Assembly: GCA_973895155.1 (NCBI GenBank)
Contig: OZ316891.1
Location: 2,865,801-2,929,800, forward strand
Direction of reading: 5' to 3'
Source: Marsupella aquatica
Taxonomy: Eukaryota > Plantae > Marchantiophyta
Length of the DNA: 64,000 nucleotides
Below, one piece after another: positions 9,485-58,858 of this stretch (positions are counted from its first letter, which is position 1; each line of letters begins with the position of its first letter). The notes under the pieces are model-generated. The model had not been told where the DNA came from. It was given only the letters and a program-made list of their open reading frames with translations, and did no database searches. A program made the translations under genes and the position numbers.

Positions 9485-9660
9485 GGAGTAGGAGTCCCTC
9501 ATATTTTTGTATAAAACACAATTTTGTAATAAATGTGATCCTTGAACTAACTCATCTTGTCATGGTTGGTCGCAGTTGAAGTGATTGTTGTTTCCTGCTG
9601 TGTGGGGTGTGACTGTGAATCTACTTGCTAGGCTCTGTTTGGCTGAAGACTTTGGTGGGT

Positions 9661-20142: not shown

Positions 20143-20160
20143 TGGCGCTAGATGGAGGGG
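20143..20160 (+). promoter_or_regulatory. Putative primer-binding site TGGCGCTAGATGGAGGGG
   Basis: TGG-start motif 12 nt after the 5' LTR, resembling Tat/OTA-type PBSs; cognate tRNA not determined. Confidence 0.6.
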
Positions 20161-20253
20161 GCACTCTACATATCGTAGAGGGGAGACATGTGCGTATTCA
20201 CCTAGGCAGGATACATCAGGACGTGGTACTAACCATTGCATTTATATGAGTAA

Positions 20254-25500: not shown

Positions 25501-26246
25501 GTGGAACCCACTTCCTCAATGACACCGTAGCCCAGCTTACGGAGCGTTACCTAGTCAAGCACCGCAAGACTACCCCATATCATCCTAAAGCCAACGGGAT
25601 GGCGGAGAGAGCAAATGGTATCATTGGGAAGATCCTCAACAAAACTGTAGCTGCGCATAAAACGGATTGGGATGATAAGTTGTACGCGGCGGTGTACTCG
25701 TATAATCTAGCTTACAAAACTACTACGAGTCATAGCCCGTACTTTCTGGTGTTCGGCCAACATTCGTTGGTGCCCGTCGAATTTGAAGTGCACACTCCAC
25801 GGGTCAGCATTCGGGATCGCTTACCTGAATCTGAAAGTCTGTCAGACCGAGCTTATCAGATTGAAGCCTTGGAAGAAGCACGGCTACTGGCAGCTCGACA
25901 CACCGTGAAGAAACAGGCAACTTCGAAGAAGCAGCACGACAAAGGACTACGGAGGGTCGACGTCGTGGCAGGCGATCTAGTCCTTCTGTACGATAGTAGG
26001 TACATGCAGTTTCCAGGGAAGCTGCATACCCGGTGGTTGGGGCCCTTCCTTGTCAATCAGATCTACCGAAACGGATCTTTGGAGCTTGCGACGTATGCCG
26101 GCGATTTACTCCCCATGCGAATCAGCTACGATCGTGTAAAAAAGTACCACCATCAAGATGACGACGCCGATAGCGATGTTCGCGAGGACGCTTCACAATT
26201 AAGCAGGGAGCTATGTGACGCCGCCGGTATGGCGGTTAATGAGTGA
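22485..26246 (+). pseudogene. pol: Gypsy Pol (PR-RT-RNase H-INT) with one in-frame TGA (24108-24110); stop codon lies inside the 3' LTR
   Basis: LVDGGAGVNIM; DHYPLP, LDGYSGYNQI, PFGLCNAP, FIDD; YVDVS...DREALG...TDH; HEEEAGGH...CDLC, DYIGP, SDRG, NGMAER, WLGPF. Confidence 0.95.
26200..26213 (+). promoter_or_regulatory. Putative polypurine tract (aagcagggag) overlapping the integrase C-terminus
   Basis: Short purine-rich run immediately before the 3' LTR TG. Confidence 0.5.
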
Positions 26247-30214: not shown

Positions 30215-32475
30215 ATGTGTGAACGGTTGAAGTCATTAGAGTGTGGACTCCCTCGAGTGGAAAGTAAATTGGCTGATCGTTTGGATATTGTGGAGGCATC
30301 TGTGGCGAACCTTCTTGCATCAGTGGAATCTAATTTCAAGCTTGTGATTGAAAAATTGGGTGGTTCCCAACCAAACAATGAGGGCAACATTGTACAAAGT
30401 GTGCCCTTGTTAACAAAAAAGGGAATTGGCAAATCTGACACAGGTATGGAAATGACACCGGCCCATTGTTCATTGTGTCCTATGTTCAAATGTTAGAAGT
30501 AAGTTTTCATGAATTGAGTGAATGGTTTGAATGCAGGAAGAGTGGAGGCAGAGAAGGACCCTGTAATCAGTAAGCAGAAGGGCAAGAAGGTTGCTGAGAC
30601 AGGTAACCTGCTATGATCCAGTACATTACATTTGAAAAGTGCATGGAGTTTTGTGAAGCTTAAGCCGGTTGGAGGTAATCTTTTCTGTAAGAACTGGTTG
30701 GATCAACTGGGATCTGAAGTGACATCATGATTGATGTATCAGGTGATTCAAAGAGCAATAATGAAGAAGATGTGCCCAGTGCCTCAATGACCATAGCCAA
30801 GGAGGTATCAGGTAAGTTGATGCTTTAAATTCCTCTATATGAATGTTGAGCAACAATTCAGTGGTTAATAGATTCAACCTGAATATTGTGGTGTGTTTAT
30901 TGATCAACAGAAGCAGACATGGAGCATATGGCAATGGCAAAGAAGGGGAAGAAGGCTGTTCATAATGGTAAGGAGATAGTGACAACTTTGTGGTTGGTGA
31001 CATGTACATTTAGCACATGTGATGAGTGATTGACTTATGTTGGACATGACACTGAATTGTAGTTGATGCAGAGTTGACAGACTCTCAACCAAGTGGGAGT
31101 AGGGTGAAGCGACGTCGAAACTTGGGAGCAACATTGGATGCAAGTAAGATTGTAGATGCTTCAATTGAAGCAAGTACAATGTTGGTAGATACTGAGATGA
31201 TGTCGCAGGGAAATCCTGCTACACAATCAGAAGTGTCAAATATGGATGCAGATTCTTTGAAGAAGAGTGTAGCCAATTCTCGATCACCAGCACAAAACAC
31301 TCGTGCCAAAGTCATGACTCGCAACCAAGGTATGAATAATGTCATGTGTAAGCCACCCAGGAAAGCCAAGAAAAACAGCCAGGGTAAGGTGGAGGTGATA
31401 GCCACAGCAGAGCCAGTCCATAATCTTCTATCATGGGAGGATGACTCGCAGGTATGTGTGGGTACAGGCATTTTGCGACCGGATCATGCAAAATTCCATG
31501 GCAAAGTGGTCCCGGATGACCATGTAGTAGTGTTGTTGACTACAGTGATTGTATCTGATTGTAATTTGCCATTTCCGAATAGAGACGATGATCCACCTCA
31601 GGAAATAATTGCAGATGCAGTAGGATCTCTTGTGCTCTGGCCATCAGAGTGTGTTAGTCTGCAATGACTGAATGCAAGTGTAGATAGCATCATGTGAATT
31701 GTGTCACATTTTGACATTGCCTTGGAAAGATCCAAGAAATATCTGTACCAATTTTTCCATTTGGTAAAGAGGATGAAGGAGACGTTGTGTATGACATTGA
31801 TATTTCTGAATTCTGTATGTATGAAACAAGTGATTGATGTCAAACTATGGCTCTATGGTGATTGTCTATGATACTTGAATCTATTTTATCATTTCAGTAT
31901 TAGTGTGTATGGTATAGAGGAATACTTTGTGACCTTCTTTGTAGTCTATGAAGTTTGAATCTATGAATTCATATTAGTGTACATGGTATAGAAGATGGCT
32001 TTCTGAAACTATGTATTCTAATGTTAACATGATGAATGGTGAACTTATAGAGTGAGTTCATTCCAAGTACACAATAAAACATGAATGCAATATGTTATTT
32101 GTGCACAAGAGTGGGTTCATTCCAAGTAGTATAGTGGGGTCTTCATCACTCATATCCAGTTGACATGAAAGACTTATACATACCCCACAAAGTATATTTA
32201 AAGACTACCCTCCATAACCTTTTTAGTCGTTCCCAACGACTCATCATCGCAGCCCATAAAAGACTAAAAACGACTCACCAAAGCTACCCACACAAAGACT
32301 AAAATAGACTGAAAATCCAGTCTATTAAACGACTTATAAACCAGTTCTATAAAGGACTCAGTTGATTATAGTAACAAAACATACGACTCACAGTCCTATA
32401 AAGGACTAGAGTCCTTCCCAGTCGTTTCCAAGTCCTATACGGTACTGAATAGTCGTTTAATGGGGTCTAAATACC

Positions 32476-37660: not shown

Positions 37661-40600
37661 TTGTACAGGAATCCAACGTGCAAGTTCTCGCTCTTGTCTT
37701 GCACCAACAAAGGGTGCAGTTTGATCTTCCATCTCTTCCATGTACTCATTTTGAAGGTCCATCATCTTGGGATTTTGAGAAGGTACACTTGACGAGTGAG
37801 ATGTCCCCAAAATCATCTTGTAACCTGTGCCATGGTTAGTCTTTGGCCAAAAATCAGTTGTCAATGGCAATTGTCTTTCCCCCTCCCCTTGAACAGTGCT
37901 TGCACAAGATTCTCCCAATATTTGACCAAAGGAAATCTCTCTTGATATGCTGTAGAGGTTTCATCCTTACAACTTTTCTTCAAGAAATCAATATAGCGAT
38001 TAAGGAATAGGATGATTTCTCTGGGCTTCTTTTGTACATCCCCAGATACAGGTTTTGCAAATGGTTGGTTTTCCGATAAAAATGAGCGCATTTGTGATGG
38101 GATCAGTTCTCCAAATGGACCTCACCATTGCTGGAAGCCAAGGTTGCTTGACGTGTGCTTTATATTGATACACTGGCACATTATCCCTCATGGAGAAAAG
38201 AAATGCCACTAGTTTTGAGTGACCTTCTATCCCTTTCACTTAGAAAGTCTTCAAATACTCCTTGTAAGATGCAACCTCTTGAATTAGTTGTGGTACAGGA
38301 TGAATGCTTTCACACTCCCAAACCTCAGCCATCAACCCCAAGAGGGTAACAACCTCTTTGTATCTGACTTGTTTGGATACTTGAGAAATAATGCATCCAC
38401 GTCTTCATGGGTGTGGCCAATGATGAGGAATGACATTTGCACAGTTTCAAACACCCCCTGCTAACAAGCTCAGTGCAAAATGCCATTACATACTGATTTT
38501 TGTTATCTTTCCCTGCATTCTCCATCTCCAATGTTACGTGCCTTGGTAAGGGCTTGAAAGAGCCCTTGGTAGTCTGAGGATCATCCCTAGAACCAACATC
38601 CACTGTGCTTGATTTTTGAGTCTCCTGCCCATCTTCAATGCCTTGAAATTGAACAATTGAAACATTTTTGGGTTCAAAGTAACCGGCCAGAAATGCTTCA
38701 AAGTCAAGAAGGGACTGAAATATTGGCCTAGTTGCATTCCAATTCAATCTTTCAAGAAGATCTCCAGTTTTGTCTCTTGTGCAATCTTCCAAATCTTGGA
38801 GGCATTTGGCCAAAGATGTCACAGTAAACTGAAACGTGCATACACTCCAAGATCTCTTCCATCGGTTAACATCCCAGTAAGAGCAATAGGCAGAGGCTGC
38901 TCACTACCAAAGAGGGATTTTGGAGTGGGGACCAACCTAGAGATGCAAGTCTTGGCTTGATCCATCTTATCGTGAATAATGAAAAGATAGTTTTGAGGAT
39001 CCTTCTTTGCAAAAACCCTATGAGCATAATAAACATATCGTTCTTGACATTTGTTCACAAAAATGTTGCGCTCTCTTCTCTTCAATCTTTGCATGCTTTT
39101 TTTTTCTCTTCTCTTGCATCAATTGATCTTTGAACTCAATGCAAAATGTGCACTTGGCAAATGCACTTCCCTTGTGAAAGTCAAAGTTATCAAAAGAATT
39201 ATTCCAGATGTTGTACATAGTAACTTCAGTAACCTTAGCATAGCTGTCTAATTCCATCTTGGCAAACACCTCCAGAAAAATCTACTTCTTAGTAAAACAT
39301 GACGGAGGCCAATATTTGACAGTGTCGGTACCGTGAGACCCGCCATAGGGAAGATGTGGCATTGGTTCCCTACTTTGGATTAAAATGGACTCCAATAATG
39401 CCCGAGCGTGCAAGGTGTCTTATGCTCACCCTGATTCCATGGAAACCAACTGTGCAACCAGCTTCATATTGATTTTTGTAGTTGTAATATTTTGTTGTAC
39501 TAAACCCATCCTTACAAACCACATGACCCTTTAGAACAAAAAATCCTTTTTGCATGACTTGCTCCTCTCTACATCCAAAGAGACTGAAGGTATGACTTGT
39601 TTTGTTGTCACTTGACATTCCATGGTATTCCCTCCTTATCACCTCTAAGTCCTCCCTTGGCATGTTCAAGCAACACTTTAACTTGCAACAACCTTCTCTT
39701 TGGATGGAATTGATTGACTCTTCTGTGACCTTCATAACTGCCCTTGACTCCAAATGCCTTTTTTTCTCCTCAAGATCACCTTTGTCCTCCTAATGAAATT
39801 ATAAGGTTTTTTTAGAAGCTTACCATCACCATCCAAATCAGGGTTGCCCTTGTGTTGACCCAATTCCATCCACGTTTGTGATCCTTCTTGAAGGATATCA
39901 CCAAGAAACCTTTCAGTCGATCTTAGTAGAAGGGATTTGATTTCCCACCTCACCCAAACTAGAGTACCAGCGCGGATATTTGGAAATAATGGAGAATCAC
40001 TAATATCCACAACAGCTACACCCACATGATCTGGACTGTGACAGGGCTCCAAACCCGCTAGTAACTTAGTGATGACTTATGATTGCGTATATAAGTAGAA
40101 AGACAAGTAGGTGTCGTAAAAGTGTTGGGATTTTCAAATTTTTTAATTTTTGTTAGTTCTAATTAATGGATGCAACAACCGGAGGCTAGAGTTGAGAGGG
40201 GTGTCGGGCGGTCATGGATGACAATGGAGCCATTAAAGGGGTACAAGGAGGCCAAAAGGCAGCCCAATGACTTGGAGGCCAAGGTGTGGGCATCTTAGAG
40301 GGGTGGGGGCTGGCCGAAGGCTCCACATAAGGTGCAAAACAAGAATAACGACCAAAATATAGAAAACATTGAAACAGACCATTGAAACTTGAAACAATCA
40401 CATGGGGCTGAAAGGTTTCAGAAACTCATGCAAAACTGGGGTTCCCTAGTTGATTTTAGGTCTGTATCAAACAATGACATCTTGAGAAACCTCAATGCCC
40501 GTAAAACGGTAAAACTAGACAATCTTGGAGTAGTGACGGTGGGAGGGCCCTTAGAAGGAAGGGGTTCCACACTTGTTGAGGGGCGCTTTGTAGAGGGGCA

Positions 40601-42924
40601 CTCTGTAGAAGGGGCCCCCACACTTTCTTCCTTCTCTTTTTCTCTTTTCTCACTTGTGGGGTTCCCACCCATTCCTAAACCCTAAACCTTTTCCCTGTTG
40701 TGCTTGATTTCAATGTGTGTACGGACCCTAGTCGTACGAGCATCATATTTTTGACCATCTCAAAATCAGAGGTTTATGGGATTTTTTGAAAGATCTCGCC
40801 GAGCTAAATCCAACGATATATCATGTAGTCAAAACGGAGTCAAGATGGTAAAGATATGTTAGATTATGTTTTTGACAATAATTTCTCGACATCGAATCCA
40901 TACGGACGTCTGTACATACTGCAGCCATGGACCCCAGTTTTTTCCCAGAAGTGGAGATGGTAGTTGCAAAGCCGGGGACCCCTTTTGTGGGAGAAGCCGT
41001 GGCCCCCTGGTGTTGTATGGACAAACAGAGAGGGATGGTGTCCAATAAAAACTTAAACGATCATATCTTGGCCGTTTGACCTCCGTTTTGTGTGCCATTT
41101 ATGGATCTGTGATTAGGAAGAGGAGAGCTCCTTAGATATGTTTTCAGAAGTAAGTTCTGAGAATATTTTAGTTTTGACAATCGTAGGGGCCCTTCCCTTT
41201 ACGGCGGACCGGTGGTGGCGATCAAGAGGATTGAGGCTGGTAGGCTGGGTAGATAGATAGGATAGGAGGTGGTGGACTCAAGTGAGTCCATTTTTAGTGG
41301 AGTGGTACTGGGCACTGTTGAAGGCAGCATCGGTCTCCCTTAGGATAGGATAGGTTGGTGATACATGTGTGTGCTGCATGTTAGGTTTTGAGGTTAGCGG
41401 CGCCACCAAGGGGTAGGGGCCAGCCAGGGCAATGACCGCCACACCCTTGTAGGGCTTGTCTGCTTTGGTGTGTTTTTCCAGTATTTAGGAGGGAGCCCCA
41501 TAGTGAATCGGGGGGAACTCAGTCTAGTGTTGATGAAACGTTAGCTGGTAGCATAGGGAAGGAAGTAATCTGGTCTGGAGTAGCGAGGTGAGAAGTAGTC
41601 ATTGTCCTAGTAAGGCAGGAGTTGAGTAGACGGCAGGAGGTCGGGTTACTCATGCAATGTATTACTTGTCACCAAAAGATATGGATTCAAATTGACTCTC
41701 CAAAGTTCGTTACATGTTATGATTTTGGTGCATTCATAGTTGTGTTCTTCCCATAGCCAATTTGGTGTGTTTTCATGAGAGGACCCACCAAGTGGTTTCT
41801 TGAGAGAAGTTTACAAGGTCTGGTTGGCTTTGTGAGCCAAAGGAGTGGTGACAGCACCCCACTAGAGACCAAGAGGAAAGTGCAATCCATGGGACTTGAT
41901 CAAAAATAGTGACGGGTGAGAAAGTTGACAGACTTGATCAAAAAATGCAATTCCGGGAGCGGAAACAAATATACTCATTCCTAGAGTGATGAAGTCTAAA
42001 TAGCGTCTCTCCACATCCCCGTGATACGATTAAAACGGTATTGGCTGTGAAGAAGTGGAAATGTACGTAGTTACCGTTTGATAAATAGACGACATGGACC
42101 AAGACATTCATCATTAATTGCACCTATTTCAAAAGGAATTGTGATAACACCCATTGCCACCTTGTGACAATGAGAAGCATCGTACAAATCAACTTCCTTC
42201 GCCATCCAATTGGAGCGCATTGTAAAATCTTTTAACGTATGATCTATGAAAACATTTCTGCCAAAGGATTTGCCAAGATCTTTGCCAGGATCTTTGCCAG
42301 AGCCCATTTTTGAAACCTGTGCTGCATCCCAAATAACCCAAGTTTGAATGGCCTCATCTATTGTATTAGCTTCTGGATGTGGATAAGGCAGTGTTTGATT
42401 TCCCTCCACAATCTCCATTATTCGTATAGTGATGCGACCAGCACCAAGTATATCACTATGGCAAGTATCCATTGGATTTGTCTTGAATACAAATCCTTTT
42501 GCAACAAGCTGATCTAAAACAAACATTTCCACCTCATCTCCTTCATTGAATGTGTCTTGTTGAAAGCCAACATCAGATTTGGAACATTTATCATTATCAA
42601 TATCAACTGGAGAGGAGAAGTCATCCATGTTGGATTTATGTTGGAGAGTTGGTGACCTCAAGTATGCCAAGGCAGAATCCCAAATCACGCACGAGTCAAT
42701 TGCCTCAGCCAGAGTCATTGATTTTGGTGATGGAAATGGAAGTTCAAGCGATCCTTCAAAATATTTCTCAATCAGTACCCCAATTCGATTCCTCCCTAAA
42801 CAAATATTTTGTATAGGGTCTTTGGGGTCAACCTTTTGAACTATCCCTGTTGCAACTTCAAATCCTTCAATCGATCACCAATGAAACTTCATCCCCACAA
42901 GAAAAAATAACCATGATAGCGTAC
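37661..42924 (-). pseudogene. Sola-like (DUF7869-type) transposase with three N-terminal TnpA-C-terminal-like repeats; heavily decayed, cut by the Copia and a solo LTR
   Basis: CCKLKCC...VLKGHVVC, FAKCTFC, IIHDKMD, LEMENAGKDNKNQYV...LVSRG, GHTHEDVDALF (in a shifted frame near 38400); many frameshifts. Confidence 0.7.
40037..42094. mobile_element. Solo LTR (2058 bp) inside the Sola-like gene
   Basis: TGT...ACA ends with perfect 5-bp TSD TGGAC (40032-40036, 42095-42099); removal restores NDECLGP|DHVGVAVVD in frame. Confidence 0.88.
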
Positions 42925-44709
42925 CTGACCTTAATGAAAAAACTTTCAAAAAGGTTTGACATCATTTTGTCCCTCTTCCCAAAACTACGTCAATCATGAT
43001 CAGATAAACATCGAGAAATAGGCTATCTTCCAAATCTTCAGGTTAGCTCAAAATTATTTCGTCCCAATGACCTTGACAATCTTAGCTATGGTTGGATCTC
43101 TATAGACTGAGTGAGCAAAATGGCAATCTTGAACAATATATTTATGAGTTTTCAAAATAATTAGACCACATTCCAAGGAAATCTCATGACTATGCTTGAA
43201 TGATCTACATAGGTGTAATAGTAAAATTAAAGAAAATTTGTGGATGGGTCGACCTTTTTGCGACCCCCTGTCAAAACTATATTGGATATGCATGTTTGCA
43301 TTACAACATAACTAATCTAGAACTTCTTGCATCAAAGCCCTTGCCCAAGTTAGCTAGCATTCCCTCACCCAAATTCTATTACATGTATAGTGTATAGTTA
43401 TTATAATCCTATCTAAGGTAGCTTACCTTGACCAAAGTTAAGTATATAATTATGTTTCTAAAAAATATAGATTGGACTACAAAAGGCTTTAGTGAAGTCA
43501 ACAAGATTGAATCCAACAACCCTATTGACTGACTAGTCAAATAAAAAAGACTGACCTGCTCTCAAATGTTGGACACAAGATTAGACCTTTCAAAAGAGAC
43601 TTTAATTGTGGACCTGCTTGACAAGTTGAGTGGGTGCAAACTGACTCCCCTCACTCCAAATGAACCTAACCAAGACGGGCACAAGAGATATTGATCTCTC
43701 AAAGTCGGGATGCAAATGAAAGGAAAAGATGGATCCTAAATGACTTCTACCTCTTGACAGTTCACATTGGGAGCCTCTTATGTTGGGAGGATTTTCCGCT
43801 AGACGATAAGGTGATATTCCTTATCCATCCCAATTGTACGGATAAGGAATGGCAGGTGGGCAACAAAGGTTGGCAGGGTTGAGGGCAGGGAAGAAACGGT
43901 TGCGGTAGGCAGAAAGACAGGAGGTGGCATCGTATGGCTGTGACTTCGTACGGCCATGGCATTGTACGGTAGTCGTATGGAATAGGCAATCGCAACAAAG
44001 GCAGGTGCAGCGATTGGCAGGCAGGCACGCACACAGGCCAACAAGGCAAGCAGGGGGAGTATAGAGGAGTATAGAAGGAGTATAGGGGAGTATAGAAGGA
44101 GCTTCAGGCCTCATTTGTCTCATTTCTCCGCTTGCTCTTTGCTTTTTAATTTTTGCTCTTCTCCCTTGCTTGCTCTTGCTCCTTGCTCCTTGCTCCTTGC
44201 TCTTTTGCCTCACTCCTCAAATTTTTTTTGGCCTCGCTCTTGCATGTTTTGGGTTGCTCTTGGATGTTCCCTTCCGTTTTGCAAGGCTCAAATCAGGGTG
44301 GTCGTCTCCTGCACTGCCACATGTCACTCTTCAGCTATCTCAAACCCCCTCTATTATTTCAGAATGTTTTCTTCTAGCAGTTCAGAGATTCAAGTGGTTC
44401 TGGTGCATCTAAAGAGTCTATGAATTTTTACTACAACTTGGTGCATCAGTATGACCCCAAAGACAAGGATATCCAAAAGGTCGTACAAAAAGTTTTGACG
44501 ACCTCCAAGAGATTGCAAGCTGTCTTTCCAAGTAATGCATCCTTGAATTCATTTCAATCTAGGTCCGCCTTGCTCTAGGAGCGAGGGAAAGTCATTGGCA
44601 TTTGTTTTATGCTTGTTTGAGTGCGGTAAATTGTTTTGCCTTGCTTGTTTGAAGGGTTTGAGAAGAGTTGCCTCGCTCTTGGGGCGAGCCAACTAATGAC
44701 TCCTTGAAG

Positions 44710-45387
44710 TTCTTAGCTAATTTTCTAGGTGGATTTTGTTTCTTGTTTGAAGGGGTCAAAAACTTTGCCTCACTCTCGGGGCAAGGCAACGCATGACTCC
44801 ATGAAATTGGGGTAGCGAGGATCATCAGTTATCAGTTTTTCCGCTTAAATTTTTTGAATCTCAGCTGAGCAGCTGAGATGACGACTTTGCACTTCCACGC
44901 ATCTCAGCTAGGCAGCTGAGATTGACTTCATCTCAGCTGACCTCGCCAAGATCGGCATGTGGACAAAAAAAATAGGAATTTGTTTTTTAAATTTATATTC
45001 TTGAAAAATTCAAAACGAAAAAAAAATTGAAAAAAAAATTCTACAAAATCCCGTGTCCGTACCGTACTTGGTATCTTGGCTTGCCCCGCCGAGAAGTGGT
45101 GTCCGTACGGTACGGACACCCATAGTGAAGAAATTTTTCAAAAAAGAGTTTTTTTTCAATCATCAAATTTTTCTTTCCGCATTTTTTTTCGGCACCGCAT
45201 CTTGGCAGCCTCTTTGAGATGATGTGGCAATTGATAACAGGTCGACTGATGGAAACGACTGATAACTGATGATGTAATTTTACTCCATAAAATTCTTAGC
45301 TAATTTTCTAGTTGGATTTTGTTTCTTGTTTGAAGGGGTCAAAAAACATTGCCTCGCTCTTGGGGCGAGGCAACGCATTCATGACTC
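44710..45387 (+). repeat. ~90-bp direct repeat (44710-44800, 45293-45387), each ending in a TTGCCTCGC...GCGAGGCAA hairpin
   Basis: ttcttagctaattttctag.tggattttgtttcttgtttgaaggggtcaaaaa...ttgcctc.ctct.ggggc.aggcaacgcat twice; another hairpin copy at 44668. Confidence 0.8.
44823..45271. mobile_element. MITE-like element (~449 bp)
   Basis: Inverted ends CATCAGTTATCAGT / ACTGATAACTGATG flanked by AT on both sides; AT-rich non-coding interior with internal palindromes. Confidence 0.65.
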
Positions 45388-48168
45388 TGTCATGAGATGA
45401 GAATGTTGGATTCAAGTTGGGATGCAAGATATCTCACGTTTCCATAAACACTACTGACTGGAGTTATTCCGAGCTCAGTCTTTAGAAGTGAGAAATAGAC
45501 AGTACATACAGTGCGACAGTGAAGTAGCTTCAATCGAAGGCAAGTATTTGAGTTAAATTCAGTTGTTCACATTTCCTTTGTACTCAATTACAATTATTTT
45601 AGACTTAGAGTTGGTTGGTGTTGATAGTAAAGGCTGCAACAAGCTAGATTGAATATTGCCTCAAAAGTGGTGTGTGCTAGAAAAATGCTCTTTGTCAGAA
45701 TGATATTAGCTTAAAGCACAAATCATAGGGAAGCAATTAGTCATTAGAAACCAAATGGGCATAAAATAAGGCCCTTAAGCCTTTGTAAAGGGCACCTGCC
45801 CAGATTTCTCCTTAATCTGCCCGAAAAACATTTGACGGATGAGATTAATTGCATCTAAGGTATCGTGAAAGGAATTGGCAAGCAGTTCTCTAAAGAAAGT
45901 TGGGATCTCTTTTGATTGTGGCGTAAGTACAGTACGTGTATGTACGTACGTAGATGTTGACAGGAATGCGGATCGTGAATGAGCCGACTCTGTCACTCCC
46001 TTTCCAAAGGAAACAGTCAAAATTGCATCCCGCGGGAGTGTTGCTGGCTTGCATGGAACTGACTTTTTGCGGGAGGAATGCCGAGGCATAGTGAATCATT
46101 TTTGAACCTTTCTCTCAACTGAATTGGATTTGAAGTGTTTGGTCAAATCCAATACCTTCCAAAGACAATCCGCGGGAGTGAAACTGAGGAGCGATGAGTA
46201 GAGTGTGCATCAAAAAGTAGAATTGAGTTGAATAGTGGAACATTGGAATGGTGAATTGAGCAGGGCGGTGCGATGGCGTCCCGATGGGCAGGAGGAATGT
46301 TGACAATGCCATACTGTGCAGCCAAAATGTATAAGATTGGGCAATTCTGCCCCGTGGGATTGTCATGGTTTTTGAGATTTGTGAGTTTAGAAATAGACTA
46401 AATAGCTCCACAATTCAAGCATCGTTATGTGGTAGACTTAGCGTCGACTTCAGGCCTTGCCAGTGCCATCAAATTGGAAGAGGAATAGTCTATTTTCCTG
46501 CTTTCAATTCACTCGCGACAGCAGCAATAGCTACAGGGAAGTGACTCGAGCGCAAACAAATTGTGGATGCAAAGATTAATTGAGCTTCCACTCGTGATCT
46601 TTCCATGCAAAGATTCAATAGCGAGGAGTGTGCACTGTCGGGTAGCAAATTGCGAGGATCGGAGAAGCTGGGACCAGGATAAGATTCGCACTGAGCCTTG
46701 GCCAAGAGTGAGCAGTGTTTGCACTGCCGGGTAGCAAATTTTAAGGATCAGCCACAAGCCTTTGTCGGCTTGCTGTGCAATTTTTTGCCTCTATTTACTT
46801 CTATGGGCCAGGCGATAGATCAGGCGATTCTGAATTGTTGAGGTACGAGAATTGTCCAATTGTTTAATTTGTAGAAAGCGTTCTTGCACTTTTGGTTCTG
46901 CACTGTGGTCATGTTCTCGTCATGCTGTGCTGTGTACAACTACATTGTCATGCTTTTCTCCTGTTTATGATGACCTGTAGAAGGGAATTTGTCGCTTGTG
47001 CTGCACGAGGTCTCCCAAGTTTAAGCCACGGACCATACTCGTCCAACTAGTCATCACATTTACAGGTATCCAATCTTGCCAATCATGCGGTTGTGCCTGG
47101 TTGCGTCTTTGACCAGGTTCAAGAATTCTCTGCTTAGTTATGAAATTTGCTTTTCAGTGGATCCCTGATTTGCTCCGCTGATGAAACAAGGCCCAGCCTT
47201 TGCTTAACCGGTGTGTAGGGGAGCAAGTTGGTGCAGCTGTCGGCCCTGAAGCAAATAGAGAGGAGACGGAGAAGCCTTTTGCACTTTTACTAAGAAAACA
47301 TACAAAGCAGTGAGTGCGCATCCGAACTTCTGCTCAATTTGTTCCTACTTACTGAAAATTGTTTGGTTTAGTGTCGACATTTACTGTACACAGGCTCCTG
47401 GTCTGCTACTGATGTCTGCTCTATGAATCTATGGTACGCATCAGAATAATGGATGTCAGGCTAATGCATTTTTGTTTTTGAAATTTACAGGCCAGTAGCT
47501 GAGTAGCGATCCACGTCGAGTTAAGCTAAAGCTTGTGAGATTTTTACTGACCATTCTAAGTGAGTTGAGAGACAGAACTAGTGGCGACAAGTGGGAATGC
47601 AAACACTCCCGCATGGTTGCTCCTTGTTTTGTCACTCAACAAGCTTCCAATTACTACTCAGTCTCGTGCAAAACCCCTGTATTCATCATGGTTGCCATAA
47701 GGCCAATTTACATGGAGAGTTTCTATCCTGAGAATGCGACTATAGATACCCTATTTAACTTGGTCCCCTTAGTGGATAATTGATAACTCTTTTTAAACTC
47801 ATGTTTACAGGAGTGTGTTTGGGAAGCCAACAATACCCGAATTGGTCTGCTTACACATATATTTGGACATTTCTTGAGGTTAGTGTAGACATAAAACCTA
47901 AGTAAAACCCCTGCTTTGCTAATTTATCGATTGAATGTGTCTAAACCTATATAATCCTTAATTGACTTGACTAGCCTAATGGCATGGTTTTTGTTTATGA
48001 GGGTATTAATACATTCTCATCAGAGTTTAATTCCTAGTACTGTTCATTTGATTTTTTAAAATTTGAAGTGAATGCTTAGGACCAGATGGGCACGGCTCAG
48101 AGGAGGTTCCAGCTATCATTGTTGGTGAACGTAGCATTCCAGGGAAAAAGAAAAAGAGAAAGTCTCAC

Positions 48169-49734
48169 TTGTCTAAGCCTGATATTGCTAAGAAGCAAAG
48201 ACTAAATGGGGCCATTAGACATAAGTGGATGGCAACTTGGTACCTTAACCTTGTTAACATCAGCATGGTAGAAGATGAATATAGCACACCTGGAACTCCT
48301 TATGGCCTTCACATGTTTGTCCAATTTCTGTTTGAAATTGGAAAGGAGGCAATATCCGAATTCTTAGCAGATTTGATAGCCTCCGAAGGTAATATAGACA
48401 AAGCCAGCAAAGAGGACAACGCCTTGTTGGAGATGTGCAAGCAAGGTGCTTTGAATTGGAAACGCGAGTGGGCCCTTTGGTTGGATTCTGCAGAGAAGAA
48501 GGAGTGGATTACTACGGAGGAGGGGGCATTAGTGTGGGGGGTGTTCACAACTGATGAGGCTTTCCTGACCAACCGCAACACTCTAGCTGAGGAGATAGAA
48601 GGGTGGTTCAATGCATCAAGTGGGTCTACAGGAAGAGTGGTGACCCAAAGACAGGTTGATGAGCCCATTACAGACCCCTCCCTTACTTGTATCTCATTGA
48701 AGGACCTATACTCTCCTTGGGATGATAGTTCACATATTTGCAGTGATTCTCAACATGATTATCACCTTGTCCGTTTTGTTGGGGTGCATCTTGTTAACTT
48801 ATTTGGAGCATCCATGGTGTATGTGGCCAAACGCTTTAAGAGAGTTAACTATGAACGCCATATCTTGCCTCAACACCGCATGTTTTCAGAAATGCAGGTT
48901 TGTGGGGTAAGGATGTGTGGATTAGTTAACCCTGTAGCCATGATAAATGATTATGAGTGTCCAACACTCATTTTTCCATACTGGAATGGAGGGACATTGG
49001 AAGACATGTTGGGCCACTTGAGGGAATTTCAAAACAACCGAATGTTGGGATTCAATGAGGCACCAGAGCAAAGATTGGCCATTTTTATGGACAGTTGCTT
49101 AGAGATTTCCCTTGCCCTTTTAGAGACACTCCGATGTATGCATTCAAAGGGGTGGCTTCACAATAGCCTGCATGCTAGAAACATCCTTTTACATTTTCCA
49201 ACATGGCAATGGACTAAAAAGGGAGAGCAAAAAGTGACTGGGACCACTGATCTTGTGTTTGTTGGCATCTCAAACTTTGGAAGATGTTGCAAAGTCATGG
49301 GAACAAAAGAGGACTGGGCTCCCAAGTTTGGAGAATGGAATTGGGAAATCAACCCAGTTGGCCCCCCTCGTCACATAGCCCCTGAGTTGTATATGGGGGA
49401 GAACAACCGACTTTCTCCCTCTGACGGGTCAAGATTTTACACTGAGCTCACTGATGTCTATGCTCTTGGCACCTCAATTAGAGGGATGTGCAAAAACTAC
49501 TTTGAAGGTTGGGAAAGGGTGCATTACATTGGTTGGCATGATAGATTGGATCATACACAGGCCTTTAGAGATAAGAAGGGAGTGGCAAGTAGGTTAGTGC
49601 ATCTTTTACACCGTTTGGCACATCCAGACATGAAGATTCGGAAAACAGCAAAGACTAATGCAAGGCAATGGAAAGAGGATCTGGGTGTGAACTCTAGAAA
49701 TGTGTATAGGCCATTGGCTGGATGGTTTACTTAG
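48169..49734 (+). CDS. Protein-kinase-fold protein, probably catalytically dead; further upstream exons likely at ~46980-48170
   Basis: VAKRF, PYWNGGTL, WLHNSLHARNILL (HxD is HNS), GISNFG (DFG is NFG), HIAPEL, TDVYALG; the track start is TTG, so the true start is uncertain. Confidence 0.75.
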   Translation: MSKPDIAKKQRLNGAIRHKWMATWYLNLVNISMVEDEYSTPGTPYGLHMFVQFLFEIGKEAISEFLADLIASEGNIDKASKEDNALLEMCKQGALNWKREWALWLDSAEKKEWITTEEGALVWGVFTTDEAFLTNRNTLAEEIEGWFNASSGSTGRVVTQRQVDEPITDPSLTCISLKDLYSPWDDSSHICSDSQHDYHLVRFVGVHLVNLFGASMVYVAKRFKRVNYERHILPQHRMFSEMQVCGVRMCGLVNPVAMINDYECPTLIFPYWNGGTLEDMLGHLREFQNNRMLGFNEAPEQRLAIFMDSCLEISLALLETLRCMHSKGWLHNSLHARNILLHFPTWQWTKKGEQKVTGTTDLVFVGISNFGRCCKVMGTKEDWAPKFGEWNWEINPVGPPRHIAPELYMGENNRLSPSDGSRFYTELTDVYALGTSIRGMCKNYFEGWERVHYIGWHDRLDHTQAFRDKKGVASRLVHLLHRLAHPDMKIRKTAKTNARQWKEDLGVNSRNVYRPLAGWFT

Positions 49735-50101
49735 GTGATAGACTCGTACATTCTAGGTGGCTTAATTTGGACAGGATAGGCTGTTTTATCGGCAATGGAT
49801 GTGGCCGACAAAAAGTTACTTTGTCTATCATTATACATTAATGAAGTATATTTCATTGTTGACCACCTATTGCAAAAGCTGGTGAAAGGACAATTGCCGG
49901 CATGCCAGTTTTGTATTATTAAGGATTTTTGCCTTAAGGCACAAATGTTCCATGCCAATGTTGTATGTTTGGGGTGCATGTATGGGTGGCTTGATCAACT
50001 GATGAGGGTGATTATTTTAACTGCCAATATGAGTTTTATTTCTGAGTATGAGCTTGCCCTATGGCTAATGAAGATATGTTTATTGTACTCTCTTATACAG
50101 A

Positions 50102-52933
50102 ATGATGGCCTTGGCAGATGTCACCAACAAATGGGGCAAGGCCTATGAAATTCGCTTTTCAGTGGATCCCAAATTTGCTCCGCTGATCAAACGGGGGCTC
50201 AACATTGATTTACAAACGCAAAAAAAGTCTTTTTCAACAAAAAGGGAAGAGGGGTGCACAAATCTTGACTTGTGGATAGATGGAGGCATATACCCTAGAG
50301 ATCCAAGGACTAACTTAGCTCCCCAGTTCACCAATTTAAAAGAACTTGTGGTCTTCTTTTGCCTTGGGAAAAATGGGTTTTATGGGTATGCCCAAAGCCT
50401 TGCACAAGAGCATGACAGAACTCGTGAGAGAGAAGAACATGCTCTTGCCATCAAAGGCCTAGAAATTGATAAGAGTGTTTTATTAAAGGATAATCTTCAG
50501 TCAAGGGTAGAAAATTTGGGTTTGTTGGCGAAGATAAGGTCATTGGGAGATGACAAGGAGCAGATGTTAGAGAGGATTACTGAGCTAGAGGAAAGCTTAG
50601 CAAGACAAATACAGGTTGTGCAAGACCTGAACCTGGCACATAGAAGAGCATTGCAAGGCAGGAGCAAAGTGTTTGCTTCATTGCGATACAAATACGAGAA
50701 GCTGTTGCGAGATGGATCGACAGGTTCGCAAAAGGAAAAATTTGACAAAGCTTAGCCAAACAGGTGGGCATGCAAAGAAACTGAAACGCCAAGTTCGTTC
50801 CCTACTACAAGCAAGCACAACGAAGCAGGCTCAGGAACAGAATGCAGCAAGTGGGACAAAACAACACTTTTGTGGAGATGTTGATGCACAAAGGCATAGT
50901 GCTATCTTAATTGCAAGCATGTTGACAAAAAGGGAGAAGGAATATATGGTGCAACAACCCAACATGACAACAACAATTGTGAAGGCCACAAACAATTTAC
51001 TCACTGAGGTTGGAGATCATGTCCAAGCTAGTGATATGTTGGCTGCGTGTGACACAACAGGTGTATCTCAAAAAGGATTTGCTGCAATCCGTAAAACTTT
51101 GAAGAATGGCTTCAAGGTTGTGCATCCACAATTGAAGCTTGCAGCTGCTGTTCCAAGTTCACATCAAGTGACCAAGTTGCGGACAGAGTACAATGCAAAC
51201 CTGTCGCAACTCATTGGTGACTACAAAAGCCTACACATGGAGCTTCCGGATGCTCCAACATAAAAAAAGGCCAAAACCACTGATGGTTCCAAACCAAAGA
51301 AGATATTGCTAAGTGACAAGAATTCTCTATTCGTTGATCTTGAAGTGGTTCAAAAAAATATGGTCAATTTTTATGGAATCACTAAGGAGGAGATTGGTGA
51401 AGCTCCACTACTTTTTGTGCTCAAACTTGACGAGGCAGAGATTGTGAAAAATCAGAAGTTTGAAAGAGTCTCCATCACCCTTATGAATCGAGCATTGGAT
51501 AGCACAATCCTACATGATGATCCTCGATACTTCTCGGTGCAATCCGATCGTGATATTTGGCCTGTGGCTTGCTTTGAGGTGGCAAAGGAGTCGCATGCAC
51601 AACTTAAATACATCTTTGGTCATACATCATTTCCAATGGTCATTGAAGCACAAGAAGCAGGGAAGTTGCTGCAAGTCCCTGGAATGGGGGAATACAAAGT
51701 GGAATGGCATCTTACAGCTGACATGAAGACAATTAAGTGCATGTATGGTTTGCAACATGGTGCAAATGCCAAACACTCATGCATATATTGTCTTCAAGAG
51801 AAATCAAGTAAAGAAGCACTGGGGAGTGATACTGCTGCAAAGAAAGCTGCTAAACTTCGACAACAACCTTCTTGGAAAGGTGGGCTATTCTCCACATGTT
51901 TTGGAGCTGAACCTAGCCGTGGGACCTCAACTGATGTTGTTTGGGACCCAATATTTGCAATACCATTGACAAGGGTTCACATTTGCACATTGCATGCCAA
52001 TGTTCGAATGGTGGAGAAAATTTTGCATCTCCATTTCATGTTTGTTTGGAACATGCAAAATAAGGGTTTGCAAGTGAAAGCCATACAAGAAATGGAAGAT
52101 TCTTTGTCATCTGCCGGAGTTCATGGAGGTAATGTGCGAATATTCAAAGATCCAAATCTTTCGGGATCAACAGGGAGTGTCCCAAATCGACCTAGCATGA
52201 ATGGAGCGCATGTTGCTAGGTTATTCAAAAGAAGCTCATCGTCAGATAAGGAGAAAATTTGGATGGATATATGTGCCGCTGATAATCATAATGGGCAAGG
52301 CGGAAAATTGTCTAGGATGCGCATGTGGAAAGCTTACGAGGAGTTGCAACCATACCTCACTGGGCTAACCTTGACTGCCTCACAAAGGGTGGCATTCAAG
52401 GACAAGATTGAGAATTGGGGTTGGTTGTATATTGAAGCCTTTGGTGAGCACCATGTGACTCACTACATGGTAAGTGGCTATATTATGAGTGACCCTTATT
52501 TGCATAATAGTGCCATAGATAGACACCGCAATATTTTAGTGAGAACTTCCATCAGTTGTTCCTGGCTACATCAATAAATATCGTGAAAGTATACTGGCAT
52601 TATATCTAATGTTGGCTTTGCCCACAACTCTTCTGATGATTGCAGCATGTTTTGGTTCGGCATGCGCCTTGGTTTGTGGACAAGTATGGGAGTTTGTCAG
52701 TTTGGAGTTCTCAAGGTATGGAAAAAAGTCACTCATCAGCTAAATCAGCATACCAACGACACACACAACATGGTGGCACAAAGAACCGGACATCACCAGT
52801 AGTGCAGACATTTCAACATTGGTACCGTATTATACAACACCGAGAGAATAGCAAACTGAAACTTGCACATGCAGAGGACACAATATCCCATGGTGTCACA
52901 ATGACCAATGAAGAAGATGAGAGTGCAATGTGA
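50102..52933 (+). pseudogene. RAG1/Transib-like (or Chapaev-related) DDE transposase; frameshift near 50710, TAA at 51261-51263, intron 52470-52645
   Basis: FVLKLDE; QSDRDIWPV...KES; TADMKTIKCMYGL...HSCIYC; CTLHANVR; MNGAHVARLF; after splicing YMHVLVRHAPWFVDKYGSLSVWSSQGMEKSH. Confidence 0.85.
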
Positions 52934-53196
52934 CCTCTTGAAATAGTCAACTGATGCACAATAGTTTTCATTTACTTGTGGCAAGAGTGTACATTGAAGT
53001 AGATCTTTACATTCCTGAGTAGCTACCTACTATGCCATGGAGTAAGGATGGCATGGCTTTGTTTACACTGGGCATACTTTAGGAGCAAAAAGTGACCAAC
53101 GAAATAGGTTGCAAAAGGCTGTTGCATTTTATTGATGATAGATTCATAGACCTACTAGCTAGCTAGGCAGCTTTACACATGACTTGCAATGTGGTC

Positions 53197-54612
53197 CTAC
53201 ACTTTTTTAATGCGGAGAAAATTTCCTTCGCCAATGTCCTGGACTAGCATCACCTTCTCCTTCCTTGCATTTATCTGCAGATTCACAAGTACTGAAGTCA
53301 TCAATTATAGTTGAATGGTAAGGGTTAAAAAAGTGAATGATTAGAATGTGACTTTTAGTTAAGCTGCACAAAATAGTATACCAATTACCTTCTCCCAACG
53401 TCCCTTCTTTGTTGGCCTAACAATGCCAAACAGGAAAGTAGTCTCAGCATCCTCTGAGTTGATGTAGAAGCACACTTCTTCCCGCAGATCTCGTAAGCCC
53501 CAATTTTTTCCAACATCCAAGTTCACATGTGTTCCATCAAAAAGTTCAACCTCTAGGTCCATCATTTCAACAGCATTAGCTTGGTCCATTGCAACCCACA
53601 CATCTCGCACAAGCCGTTCACGCACATAACCAAAAGTCACATACAACATTTGTCGTCCCACATGGTACCTAAAACCAATCGATGGTCGAAGAACATGACA
53701 CTTAATAATGTCATTTGCAGCCTCAATTTTAACATCCCAACCTGGATCCATTAGAGATGCAAGTAGGGCTTCAGAAGCTGGTTTGAAGACACACAAGGTC
53801 TTAGTTTGACGCATTCCCATACCCCCTTCAACATTAAAAAGGTCTATCATGATATGGATTGGCATGAACCAACTTACTCTACACACACGGCCACCTGTAC
53901 TTGATTTCATTGCCAAATGGAAGTCCCCAAAGAGTCTAGCACGAAATGATTCACTGCTGCTCATATCTGGAACTGGCCACGAGGGATCTTGGAATGGAGG
54001 AAGAGGTATAGCTGTCAAGGTTCCAAACTTCCCTTTTTTCAAGGGTGGTATATAGGCCGCATCATAAAACAAGATGCTAGAATGTAGCAACTCCTTGTGG
54101 GTTCGAGTTCCTCGAGTGGCTTCACCAATCACTCCATGTCGCACCACAACCACATCCAAAATAGAAATTGGGTCTTGCCAATCTTCACACTTTGTTGGAT
54201 AAATATCTGTAAAGAACAATACAAGCAAATCAGTTAGACTTCCACCAAATACTAGTGGCCCAAGATAGTCATATAACCTAATGTCCAACATGGGATTAAC
54301 TATGGAGGCCTCACAGAATCACTTACAATTCAACCGGTTGCTTGGTACCCCATGAGAGTTTGACTTGACTTGCAATTGGCAATGATAATATGCATGTGAC
54401 ACCAAAATTGATTGTATTGATGATGAACCCGGAGTAAACTTGAAGTTTTTGACTTGGCCAACAATATCTTGTTTGGCCCATGGCCCTTTTTTTGGTGGGT
54501 TCAAAGTAACCCATGAACCTTTATCAATTCTTTTGGGAACCCAAACATCATTGTTGTCCCCCTTGATGTGGATGAGGACTGATTGGACCTCTGAGCGAGG
54601 GCGCTTCGTCAT
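53197..54612 (-). CDS. Intact 3-exon 393-aa protein, putative N-terminal BAH-like and C-terminal ubiquitin-like domains
   Basis: Exons 54612-54327, 54206-53389 and 53274-53197 with GT-AG introns join into 1182 nt with no internal stop; domain calls are by pattern only. Confidence 0.7.
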
Positions 54613-55258
54613 GAAAGCTGAGTTGTACAATATTCCACAATAGTCTGCATGTTGGAGTACACCCAATCTTTGACATAAGTGACTCAATTACATGTGGCAT
54701 TTTATGTTTAATTTCAAGTCAAGAAATATACTGATTTCACCCTCCGAGTATGTCCAAAATAAAGGGTGGAATAGTGGTTTGGTTGGTTTAAGTATTCACC
54801 CACATTTTGATGTTCAATGATGATATGTAATTTCATTTAACTTTCCTTCATCAAATCCTTGTTCCACATGTTTTGGTACACTTTGAATAGATTGTACAGA
54901 CTCATCACACTTGAGGTATTGAAATAGTAACCTTCAGTACATAACAAATCTGGGGTCCCAATGTTAATCAAATTTAATTTAATTAAACATGGGGTCCAAT
55001 AGGCACATTCAAGTAGGAGATCATAGTGTTTAATAGGCAACTAACTTTCTAGATGGATGGGTACAGTTTGGTTGCAATATCCAGAACAATATATTACGGC
55101 ACCCTGGATATGGAAAGTGGATTATTTTTGGCTAGAATGGACCTCACTATTTGCCAAAGGCAGGCCGCTGTGCAGCCGGTTTTCCATTTGCAAGGGCTAC
55201 TCATTGGGCTGAAGTGCCTTAACATGCCCCGCGATATACTATTTGCCGCAATGGCGAG

Positions 55259-56648
55259 TGTAACCTGACTGCTAAATGAGTCACGGTTCTACACGTGGCA
55301 TTTTGAGTCGTGCCGATAAGCGGGGACGATGGCTGGAGTTGCGAGAGACGGAAGCGACGACACAGATGTAGCGACCGTGACTTGCAGAACCACCACCAGG
55401 ATCGGCAGCGTCAAAATGCCACCGCCTGCTCATCTCCATGGCTGCTCGCTATTGGGATTGATTGTTCCTACACAACCCAGCAACCTCGATGGACAAAAAT
55501 TGATCAACGCAGTAGGTGGATCGATCGGTTTCCTACACGACAAAGCAATGTCGAAGGACCACTGCAAATGGATGTGAATCCGAGCGCAGACGAGGACAGC
55601 ATGGTGAGTCGATCAATCGAAAGAATAGGAGAGGGTTATTAGTTTGGCACGAGCTTGCTTCAATCAAACTGGAGCGGAGTGTTGGGTTCAGGAGAGCTGC
55701 AGAGCATAGCAGAGGAGAAGAGAGGAGAGCCTGAAAGGAGACGTCCTTCATGAGTGACTTGACCGGAAGCAACCTTGGGTGTGCGAATTAGATTCACTCA
55801 TCCCTTGTCACCGCCTGTCATGTCTCTCAGTTGGAGACTTGAATTCAAGGTGTGGATTGCCAACTAATGGTTTCTATAAGAACACAACCGGCAGCATGTG
55901 CAATTCAACTTCAGGCAGCTCTCACCTTCAATTACACTGGGCCTGTAACCAAAGCATTCACATCCACAAAACCAAACTTAGCCCCAATCGAATGTCACAT
56001 TCTAACTGAATGAAAGAGTCCCGTTACTTCCCAAATCAAAAATCATGTGAAACGCGACCATTCACGAAACCAAAATTAGCCCCAATCAAATGTCACATTC
56101 TAACTGAAGAAAAGTCAGAGTCTTTACTTCTTCCCCAATCTGGAATCCTGCATTAGCCAGTGGCAAATCAGTCACAAAATGAGCTCCGTGTTTGAGCCAT
56201 CATTAATCCCCGCAGAAAGTCTACTCAAATGTGACAATCAATTCATCACCCTCGACGAAGTGACCGCAGTTGAGAAATCAGTGATACCTGGACTAGGACC
56301 TGGAGATTTCTAAGAGAGAATGAGCCAGAGGATAGGATTGTAAACTCGTCCATGCATGATTGATCAAGAAGCGCGCTAGCTACAGCACATAAACTCTTAC
56401 ATAGACACTTATGCATTCAAGACTTTGGATGCGCCGGTGCACAAAGCCTTGCCTAGTTTACAAATGATCTAGAGCAAACCTGAGCTAGTTATGTGTCGTT
56501 CTCGATTCTTGCCACCTCTCGATTGCTATCCATACTCTTGAGATGATTATGTACTTCCGGGTGCAAATATGAAATCTATCGGCACATCCAAATTTGAAGC
56601 ACACCTCATCGCGCGAGCGTATGCGCTAAGTTCCCTACTGTCACAACA
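55259..56648. mobile_element. Candidate LTR of a further retroelement (possibly the 3' LTR of the minus-strand element carrying 57198-63922)
   Basis: TGTAAC...ACAACA ends, internal ~50-bp direct repeat (55966, 56064) and a weak minus-strand purine tract at ~56650-56660; no TSD or partner LTR in the window. Confidence 0.3.
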
Positions 56649-58858
56649 TTAATCTCCCGACTACACTCGGCCATGCATTGCCAATTGCCTCAGCCAATGT
56701 GCTCTAGCTTGCGAGACCGCAAATTGGCCTGTATCCACATCTTAATCTGCAGCACACATTGCGTGAGCAGATGCAGCACTAAGTTCTCTAACATCAAGTT
56801 CATAAAGCTCCTGACTGCCCTCAGCCAGCTTGCAAGATCAATGGCGAATTAGTCCAATTTGCTTTCGTCTTGGCCCTCCCCCTTCGCGCCTTGCTTCGCG
56901 CCAAAGAGTACCTGGGTTTCTCTGCCACTTCGTACTCGATCTGTACAGTCTGGGCGTTTTGCCTTCTGGCCGCCTGGCCGCGCGATGTTGACTCCCCCTT
57001 TTTCTTTTGAATGGACCAAGGAGACGGTTCTTTTTTCCCTCTGACTGACACCCTAACTAGTGAGGTGGCACACCCATGAATCCATGGAAATGTACTTTGG
57101 GCAGCTTTGGGGCAGTCCTATGAAAACTTCTAAATTCCAGTCTTTAATTGTGGCAAAACTATTTCTAATGGAAGCAGAACTTTTGAATGTGTTTAGATTA
57201 CACCTGCCTCAAACGTAGGATAGCATTCTTCTTCTTCTTTGGTTTGGCAGCTGGCCCCTTCCCCTTGCCACTTACCTCCGGCACCGGTGCGAATGTCTTG
57301 GCTTGTCCTTCGGCCAGTACTACACCAGGTAACTTGGTTGCCCCAATTGGAGTTGGTCCTGAGGAAGCCAAGCACTTAAATACTGCGACCTGTTTCTTCA
57401 GCCGCTCCGTTTGGTTGTCGGCTTGCCGCTGTAAGTTTTCCATCTTCCGCGTGCTTTCCTCCAACTCCTCCTGCAATTCATCCAAGTCCTTGCGCGCCTC
57501 CTCTCGCTCCTTCTGGGCTTCCTCCAATTCCTTCTTTAAGGTCACCCTCTCCTCCTAGGTTGCTCTCAGCTCCTTGTCGAGCTCCGTAATGACCTCAGAC
57601 TCCATTTTATTCATCTTGGCATAAGTCTGGTCGAGCTGGTCGTCTTTCTCGCGGACGTCGGCCTTGAAGCTGGCCATCATGGATGCGAGCTCTTGCCACA
57701 GCACGATAATCTCCTGATAGGATTTCCCTAACTTGGCCTCCTTCTGCTCAAGGGCTTCGCGAATATCCTTGAGTTCCCCCTTCAGCGCCCTTTCCCTTCT
57801 CTGAGTTTCTGCCATGGCCCGATTGTTGGTTGCTATGTGGTCCTCCTCTGCGTCTCTCAGCTCTCGCTTCCACTTCTCCTTCTCCTTGATCGAATTGGCC
57901 AGATCACATTGGGTCCAAGTCAGTTTATCCTTGATAATTTGATTATCAGACTGTGCAGTATCCAATTGCCCTGCATGATGTTGAGCTCATGCCGCTTAAT
58001 CCACAGCTCATCTTGGACTTTCTTGGACGCCTCCAGGTCTTCTACCTCGGCTTCCCTTGCCCCAAGCCGACGGATGACCTTGTCCTTCTTGCTTCTTTCC
58101 AAAGCCACCGCTTCTTCTAATTGGTGCTTCTCCAACATTTCCCTCTGGAAAAAAGATCCCCAATGCTCCAACTCCTCCCCAAACATGCCGAGCGCAAGTT
58201 CCCCACACATCTCCCCGTACTCCATGGCTCATTCTTTAGCATAGGTGGAGTGAGTAGAAGTCATCGGCATAATCCACCACGGCCTTTGTTCCCAGGCAGC
58301 CTTGCGAATTTCTTCTATCGTGGCTGGCAAAATGCTTCATTTTTTCTGCAAGCCACCGGATGTCCTCTGGCCATTCTCCTCCTGGTAAATCCTTCTCCCT
58401 TGCCAGGACTGCCTCCTCTTCCTCCCTGCGTCGTTCCTGAAACTCCTCTCTTGTGCCGTCTGTTTTATGCCGTCAAAACTCGGGGGAGCGACATCTGGTG
58501 GGGGAGATTCGAGGCTCCTCTGCTGGGTCGGGTCCCCTCAAACTACTCTTGGAAGAGTGGGGATGAACCTGCCACAGGTCCTTATTCCTGGAACATGATG
58601 GTCCGACCCGTAGCCAGAGTCATCATTGTCGTAGCCTTCTACCGCCTCCTCCTTGGCTTGGACTACCAGCTCCCCCCGCTGCTATCCTGGTCCTGCCGTG
58701 AACGCAACCCCATAGATCACGGGTCCTGGTTCCTCCGGCTTCCACGTTGATCTCATCTTCTCCCTGTCGTGACCAGGGGCCTCGGGCTGCTTCTCCTCGG
58801 CTTCGCGACTTGAAGCTCCTACATATATTCGGACTCCCGGCTCGTGTTCCGGCCCCCT

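Follow-up and report, generated by a model that had tools for sequence, protein, structure and literature searches.

Does a liverwort genome carry a RAG1/Transib-like transposase, and how close does such an enzyme stand to RAG1 and Transib themselves? The question is raised by a disabled gene in a stretch of 64,000 nucleotides of Marsupella aquatica (contig OZ316891.1; hereafter the window), for which a preliminary description had proposed exactly this. One half of the proposal stands, a DDE enzyme with a RAG1/Transib-type predicted fold; the other half, membership specifically of Transib/RAG rather than of the wider CMCT clade, is not supported. The explanation that we favour, with about even confidence, is a disabled copy of a likely cut-and-paste transposase with a RAG1/Transib-like predicted fold, from a likely unnamed CMCT lineage of seed-free plants with algal relatives. 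Lanisha, a CMCT lineage proposed from moss, was set apart by its published description, and ‘unnamed’ is therefore provisional.

Organization of the gene and conservation of its motifs

Four open frames (50072-50755, 50631-51263, 51264-52577 and 52640-52933) are pieces of one gene, since full-length relatives of 898-900 aa align in order to all four. Two lesions disable it, one frameshift and one stop codon, as had been described. Coordinates are collected in Table 1.

Table 1. Features of the transposase locus and of the CACTA control in the window
Feature	Position	Strand	Remarks
CACTA transposase	11235-14221		Transposase_21 E 3.8e-60, DUF4218 E 1.8e-27
Low-copy block between high-copy repeats	45860-56925		Approximate minimum extent of the element, ends undefined; from contig depth
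Short direct repeats near each side of the block	46616-46660/46703-46749 and 55961-56016/56059-56114
Relic of 70 bp, with stops	47139-47208	+	80% like the transposase 5′ region 50144-50213
Kinase-like frame, 555 codons, open	48067-49734	+	Pkinase E 4.4e-7
Transposase gene	50102-52933	+	Disabled copy; start ATG 50102
N-terminal part	50102-50714	+	Domain specific to the family (DLW.DG..YP.DP), coiled coil; runs to the +1 frameshift near 50700-50720
Next-frame continuation	50715-51260	+	Basic motif conserved in the family, a candidate helix for TIR binding; helical region
Premature TAA stop	51261-51263	+	No difference from the window in 2 organism-A contigs covering it
Catalytic core exon	51264-52469	+	First Asp 51429 (in KLDEAE), second Asp 51720 (in TADMKT), CxxC 51780-51791 (CIYC), CxxH 51984-51995 (CTLH, then MNGAHVARLF)
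GT-AG intron, 176 nt	52470-52645	+	Position common to the family; HYM reads on into HVLVRH...SSQGME across it
Last exon	52646-52933	+	HxxxxH (52646, 52661), catalytic Glu 52721, C-terminal helices, stop
Convergent gene, no Pfam family	53359-54612	-	Intron 54207-54326; possibly another exon at the 3′ end

Somewhere in the region with the frameshift, one organism-B contig lacks 4 bases relative to the window, the size to be expected if the frameshift were a polymorphic insertion.

The histidines and the catalytic Glu come into one frame with the core only through the GT-AG intron that the preliminary description had proposed. We examined its position in the 25 of 32 metagenome loci which reach the end of the core exon (two of them, L007 and L008, are near duplicates). 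GT directly follows the same codon in 21, while the other 4 run straight on into HxxxxH, as do two proteins from the databases. AG lies immediately 5′ of the His codon in 14 of the 21 GT loci, with introns of 69-199 nt. A GT at the same codon boundary in related loci, together with read-through in intronless ones, thus confirms independently that the proposed splice is real. An artefact from forcing an intron was rejected because the intronless relatives give the same peptide.

All motifs quoted in the preliminary description (the second Asp, CIYC, CTLH, MNGAHVARLF and the spliced H-H-E) were found in place; the RAG1 strings that it set beside them are taken here as an assumption. Among the rows of a 70-row alignment (A3) which cover the site in question, 45 of 47 retain the first Asp, all 55 the second Asp, 52 of 55 each of the CxxC cysteines, all 57 the CxxH and all 19 the Glu. 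Both HxxxxH histidines and Glu are invariant in the 18 rows of a further alignment (A4). Such near-invariance argues that the D-D-E and zinc motifs are not due to chance. MNG is not family-wide, most relatives having GG.KAR.

The N-terminus consists of a conserved domain of its own, a coiled coil and a conserved basic motif. The latter is the stretch earlier likened to the nonamer-binding region: its conservation in the family was borne out, its likeness to RAG1 is putative. Neither a Chapa nor a RING finger was seen in a 15-row N-terminal alignment, where 5 scattered columns are at least half Cys/His without a finger pattern. Searches of PDB sequences with the family gave no meaningful match, one returning coiled coils only.

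Predicted fold and the CACTA control

The window core exon was modelled with AlphaFold from 92 sequences (pLDDT 89.0). Foldseek, the check suggested at the outset, ranked RAG1 first (E 1.2e-8), followed by BbRAGL (1.3e-6) and HzTransib (3.3e-5), the next unrelated protein appearing at E 0.15; among the matches listed at E<=0.001, all were RAG1, RAGL or Transib. Comparison with 48,161 chains gave Z 14.6 for RAG1 (rmsd 4.6, 330 aligned), 11.5 for HzTransib (rmsd 6.7, 270 aligned), 7.2 for the P element and 5.4 for Hermes. A second model (pLDDT 89.4) was obtained for L005, an intronless relative which includes the Glu and is ~40% identical to the window core. Its structural search gave Z 19.2 for RAG1 (rmsd 4.2, 395 aligned), 18.0 for BbRAGL, 17.9 for HzTransib (rmsd 4.2, 360 aligned), 11.0 for P, 7.9 for ISCth4 and 7.8 for Hermes. 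The models predict an RNase H core that is interrupted, from the second Asp to the Glu, by a zinc-binding insertion. As far as the predicted fold goes, the enzyme would thus work in the manner of RAG1/Transib.

At the sequence level the resemblance is faint. Identity to RAG1/Transib in the structural alignments is 11-16%, short of the mean of about 26% for RAG1L and Transib together (PMC9435367), and single-sequence and profile searches gave no HMM match to RAG1 or HzTransib among PDB sequences at E<=10. A match to the Pfam RAG1 family (PF12940; 16 bits, E 0.003-0.004), below the curated cut-off, was seen over YxH-H-E in two of the 70 rows. The best 30 ESM Atlas clusters were RAG1, DUF1280 and unnamed clusters, the last chiefly from cnidarians, and none of the 30 was a CACTA family; the top score of 0.96 (189/256 features) is weak evidence because recognition, at 2181, was under the tool threshold of 2300.

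To judge how specific the catalytic layout is, we compared it with the CACTA transposase of the same window. This belongs to a degraded element (7330-15766) with PHD and BRCT frames 5′ of its transposase; a frame at 31056-31667, presumably DUF8039-like, may be a far part of it. The distance from first to second Asp is 98 in the CACTA copy against 97 in our transposase, that from second Asp to CxxC 18 against 20, and that from last His to Glu 20 in both. With spacings so nearly equal, the ‘gapless’ C-terminal match on which the preliminary description had leaned is not diagnostic. The two enzymes differ in that CACTA has DxxH and HxxxH where the transposase has CxxH and HxxxxH, and in the span from second Asp to Glu (374 against 275), the CACTA insertion being ~100 residues longer.

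Neither Transposase_21 nor DUF4218 was found in the pieces of the window transposase or, for the 70 rows, among the 25 families listed out of 46. Canonical CACTA was rejected, the control scoring strongly with both, and the expectation that the gene would fall outside it was supported. Profiles of A3 and A4 matched the CACTA pieces with probabilities of 0.2 and 0.5%, a weak test in which the CACTA side is one sequence.

The catalytic layout is common to the whole CMCT clade, ordinary plant CACTA included, and true Transib status is not established. Within this frame the family leans to the RAG/Transib side, as judged by HxxxxH, CxxH, the shorter insertion, the weak Pfam RAG1 match and the Atlas neighbours. 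The transposase shows GLQ.G and E..H, presumably Chapaev-like, for which the preliminary description had allowed a separate branch; with no RAG1/Transib profile match in PDB sequences and no CACTA Pfam families listed, this caveat has become the best reading. The family carries the motifs, and its models the RAG1/Transib-type fold, which delimit the CMCT clade in PMC12730594.

The same features, together with the best folds being RAG1, RAGL and Transib, would also suit a true but very divergent Transib/Chapaev-type transposon, the closest kin of RAG1, in land plants. We consider this improbable. The low identity and the missing HMM matches speak against it, as do the absence of a Chapa or RING finger and the size, relatives having ~900 aa and the low-copy block at least 11 kb, against 3-4 kb and one gene of ~700 aa, with a 5-bp TSD, for Transib (PMC1131882). 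Moreover, the PDB matches represent CMCT only by RAG1, RAGL and Transib, and no CACTA, Chapaev, Mirage, Plavaka or Lanisha enzyme competes with them.

The element, its neighbours and its family

Several other elements lie in the window. Within 16589-29316, a Ty3/Gypsy-like gag-pol (20254-26246) lies between two near-identical 880-codon frames (16589-19231 and 26680-29316), very long repeats with one gene each; decayed minus-strand relatives are present at 57.2-64 kb. On the minus strand are a decayed DUF7869 transposase-like frame (38325-39050) and a Transposase_23-like frame (42071-42874). High-copy, small palindromic MITE-like repeats at 44557-45858 (arms 44840-44940 and 45053-45119) border the left side of the element.

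Depth and copies were taken from contigs of four runs from two studies, one perhaps that of the window itself. The block at 45.9-56.9 kb has a depth of 30-74 in run X1, the flanking repeats of hundreds to tens of thousands. Besides the transposase it contains two further genes. The kinase-like frame has HNSLHARN and ISNFG in place of the usual motifs HRDLKxxN and DFG, with both usual catalytic aspartates missing, and is predicted from its sequence to be a pseudokinase. The convergent gene, for which no Pfam or PDB match was found, has its closest named relatives (63% and 71%) in the leafy liverwort Calypogeia fissa, and a relative at 85% in the run contigs. The Calypogeia likeness would suggest a host akin to liverworts, as far as a gene that is itself likely mobile can tell. 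Both are likely cargo of the element, a linkage that similar contig depth alone suggests; at 32 short loci the transposase had neither gene, nor a relative of it, as a neighbour.

Neighbours at those loci are of other kinds. Five (L009, L010, L024, L025 and L029) share a convergent gene of no known family that lies 3′ of the transposase on the minus strand. It has a CxxH..C cluster and the motif FDLREDY and is unrelated to the window's convergent gene. At L009 a perfect 16-bp inverted repeat of low complexity (399-414 and 5032-5047) flanks the transposase and this gene. Divergent histone H3-like genes lie directly 3′ of family transposases at L005 (1675-2226) and L020 (3633-4436); that of L005 has a lengthened loop 1 and, among PDB entries, matches CENP-A chimeras and Cnp1 best. 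The two are possible histone cargo. Since neighbours vary between loci (pseudokinase, convergent genes, H3-like genes), the family looks multi-gene with changing cargo, the linkage of that cargo within TIRs being putative.

CMCT elements have termini 5′-CA..TG-3′ and a TSD of 2-5 bp according to PMC12730594. A comparison of 44.5-48.1 kb with 54.3-57.4 kb gave no TIR pair; high-copy repeats cut both sides of the block, whose right end is perhaps beyond the window. None was found in 17 family loci of 3 kb or more either, and no TSD was found. The proposed check for CAC ends with a duplication of 5 bp or one of 4 bp hence gave neither, and the ends and mobility of the element are inferred. The window contains 11 copies of CACAGTG, where 10.1 would be expected.

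Run contigs contain a sister transposase copy ~80% identical and, in organism B, a doubly deleted copy at ~96.5%. The low copy number and the two lesions speak for a copy that is disabled and moderately young rather than for current activity. They and the identities of these relatives leave the earlier suggestion of recent activity unsupported; a recent burst was rejected.

The low copy number, the conserved intron position, the open neighbouring frames and the lack of a TIR might also be read as signs that such a transposase gave rise to a gene cluster which became domesticated, lost its mobility and is now decaying in this species. This seems very unlikely, given the two disabling lesions, a position flanked by other repeats in a window full of transposons, the presence of deleted and of diverged copies in related runs, neighbours which differ between loci and several divergent loci per single assembly.

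The family is large: 96 proteins were retrieved with a single sequence and 227 with a profile, besides 825 cluster representatives at E<=0.001 and 32 metagenome loci, several divergent loci coming from single assemblies. Named members are from the green alga Klebsormidium nitens and the fern Adiantum nelumboides, a range which rests on few labels, most members being nameless. Of 115 core-spanning sequences, 71 entered a quick tree after removal of near duplicates (family members only, no outgroup); in it the window transposase falls in a well-supported group of 35, its nearest relative 57% identical, within a deeply diverse family. None of 14 pattern matches in viral contigs and none of 18 in prokaryote genomes was a relative, viral folds gave no match at E<=0.001, and an endogenous virus was rejected.

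Candidate lineage, mechanism and known systems

Has such a family been described? The preliminary description knew of no such enzymes as regular land-plant elements, which is too narrow: Lanisha was reported from moss by Carey et al. 2021 (PMC8245031) and in PMC12730594, and Tao et al. 2022 (PMC9435367) counted 39 plant Transib-like proteins. The species in the figure legends of the latter are flowering plants, and none of six seed-free plant genus names occurs in its readable supplement text. Kapitonov and Jurka 2005 (PMC1131882) reported no recognisable Transib in plants. The literature searched on plant, bryophyte, fern, Physcomitrella and Klebsormidium Transib/CMC transposases did not describe the family beyond mentions of Lanisha, and the accessible portions of bioRxiv 2021.09.26.461848, bioRxiv 2026.08.26.747230 and PMC13547354 add no plant family of this kind.

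Our transposase could therefore itself be a member of Lanisha, the CMCT lineage proposed from Ceratodon purpureus, with the same mechanism and already known; we give this reading serious weight, short of an even chance. Lanisha elements are probably multi-gene, as ours appears to be, and the bryophyte host agrees. They probably also carry helicase and protease genes, which were not seen at the window locus. No Ceratodon-named protein is among the matches listed, though most matches are nameless. According to PMC12730594 Lanisha has the motifs C(2)C and H(3-4)H in common with Transib and RAG1 and is similar to EnSpm; our family is without EnSpm signal.

The favoured reading, a likely unnamed CMCT lineage, stands outside Transib, Chapaev, RAGL and CACTA by the features that could be tested. 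We advance a bolder form of it only tentatively: an undescribed, ancient, superfamily-level RAG1-fold lineage of streptophyte algae, bryophytes and ferns, nearer to Transib/RAG1 than to the CACTA of plants, with varying chromatin and signalling cargo (H3/CENH3-like at two loci, the pseudokinase here) in the place of RAG2. If distinct from Lanisha, the family would add a large plant branch to the transposase group behind RAG1, a branch invisible to Pfam and likely to be overlooked when the repeats of seed-free plant genomes are annotated. Some relatives of ~900 aa are intact and intronless, and with them one could ask which features of RAG1, such as the zinc site, hairpin chemistry or end recognition, are older than animals. 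Nothing here shows a special connection of plants to V(D)J recombination.

RAG1 and Transib work by end binding, nicking, hairpin formation and strand transfer. By analogy, a dimer of the intact enzyme would bind terminal inverted repeats through the basic N-terminal helix and nick one strand at each end, the D-D-E residues holding two Mg ions and CxxC with HxxxxH one zinc. The other strand would be broken by a hairpin on the flanking DNA, and the ends would be joined to a target with a duplication of 2-5 bp. An element of at least 11 kb might thereby carry the pseudokinase and the convergent gene. The window copy is unable to make the enzyme, and would move only if another copy supplied it.

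Among known systems, Chapaev elements make a 4-bp TSD according to the preliminary description. Chapaev/Chapaev3 share the CMCT motifs and differ at the N-terminus, where the transposase is without the Cys/His-rich Chapa zinc finger, or the RING of two subgroups, described in PMC4411706. Lanisha (Ceratodon purpureus; GenBank MT647524) has the CMCT motifs, a bryophyte host and escape from standard families in common with our family, which is not EnSpm-like by profile, in contrast to the likeness to EnSpm that PMC12730594 gives for Lanisha. Transib (HzTransib, PDB 6PQX/6PQN; PMC1131882) shares fold and catalytic motifs and differs by a shorter protein, an element of 3-4 kb where ours is apparently larger and multi-gene, and no profile-level sequence match.

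RAG1 (mouse and zebrafish core; PDB 4WWX, 6DBO) and amphioxus BbRAG1L (6B40) differ from the transposase by the low identity; our family is without a RING or Chapa finger and has another N-terminal domain with a coiled coil. No RSS-like ends were found at the window locus, and no RAG2-like gene was found by sequence comparison among the neighbours, that is, the kinase-like frame and the gene without Pfam or PDB match. Our family matches PF12940 weakly on the H-H-E stretch, and all three share the D-D-E, CxxC and HxxxxH layout and a fold, predicted for our family, that is alike over ~395 residues (Z 18-19).
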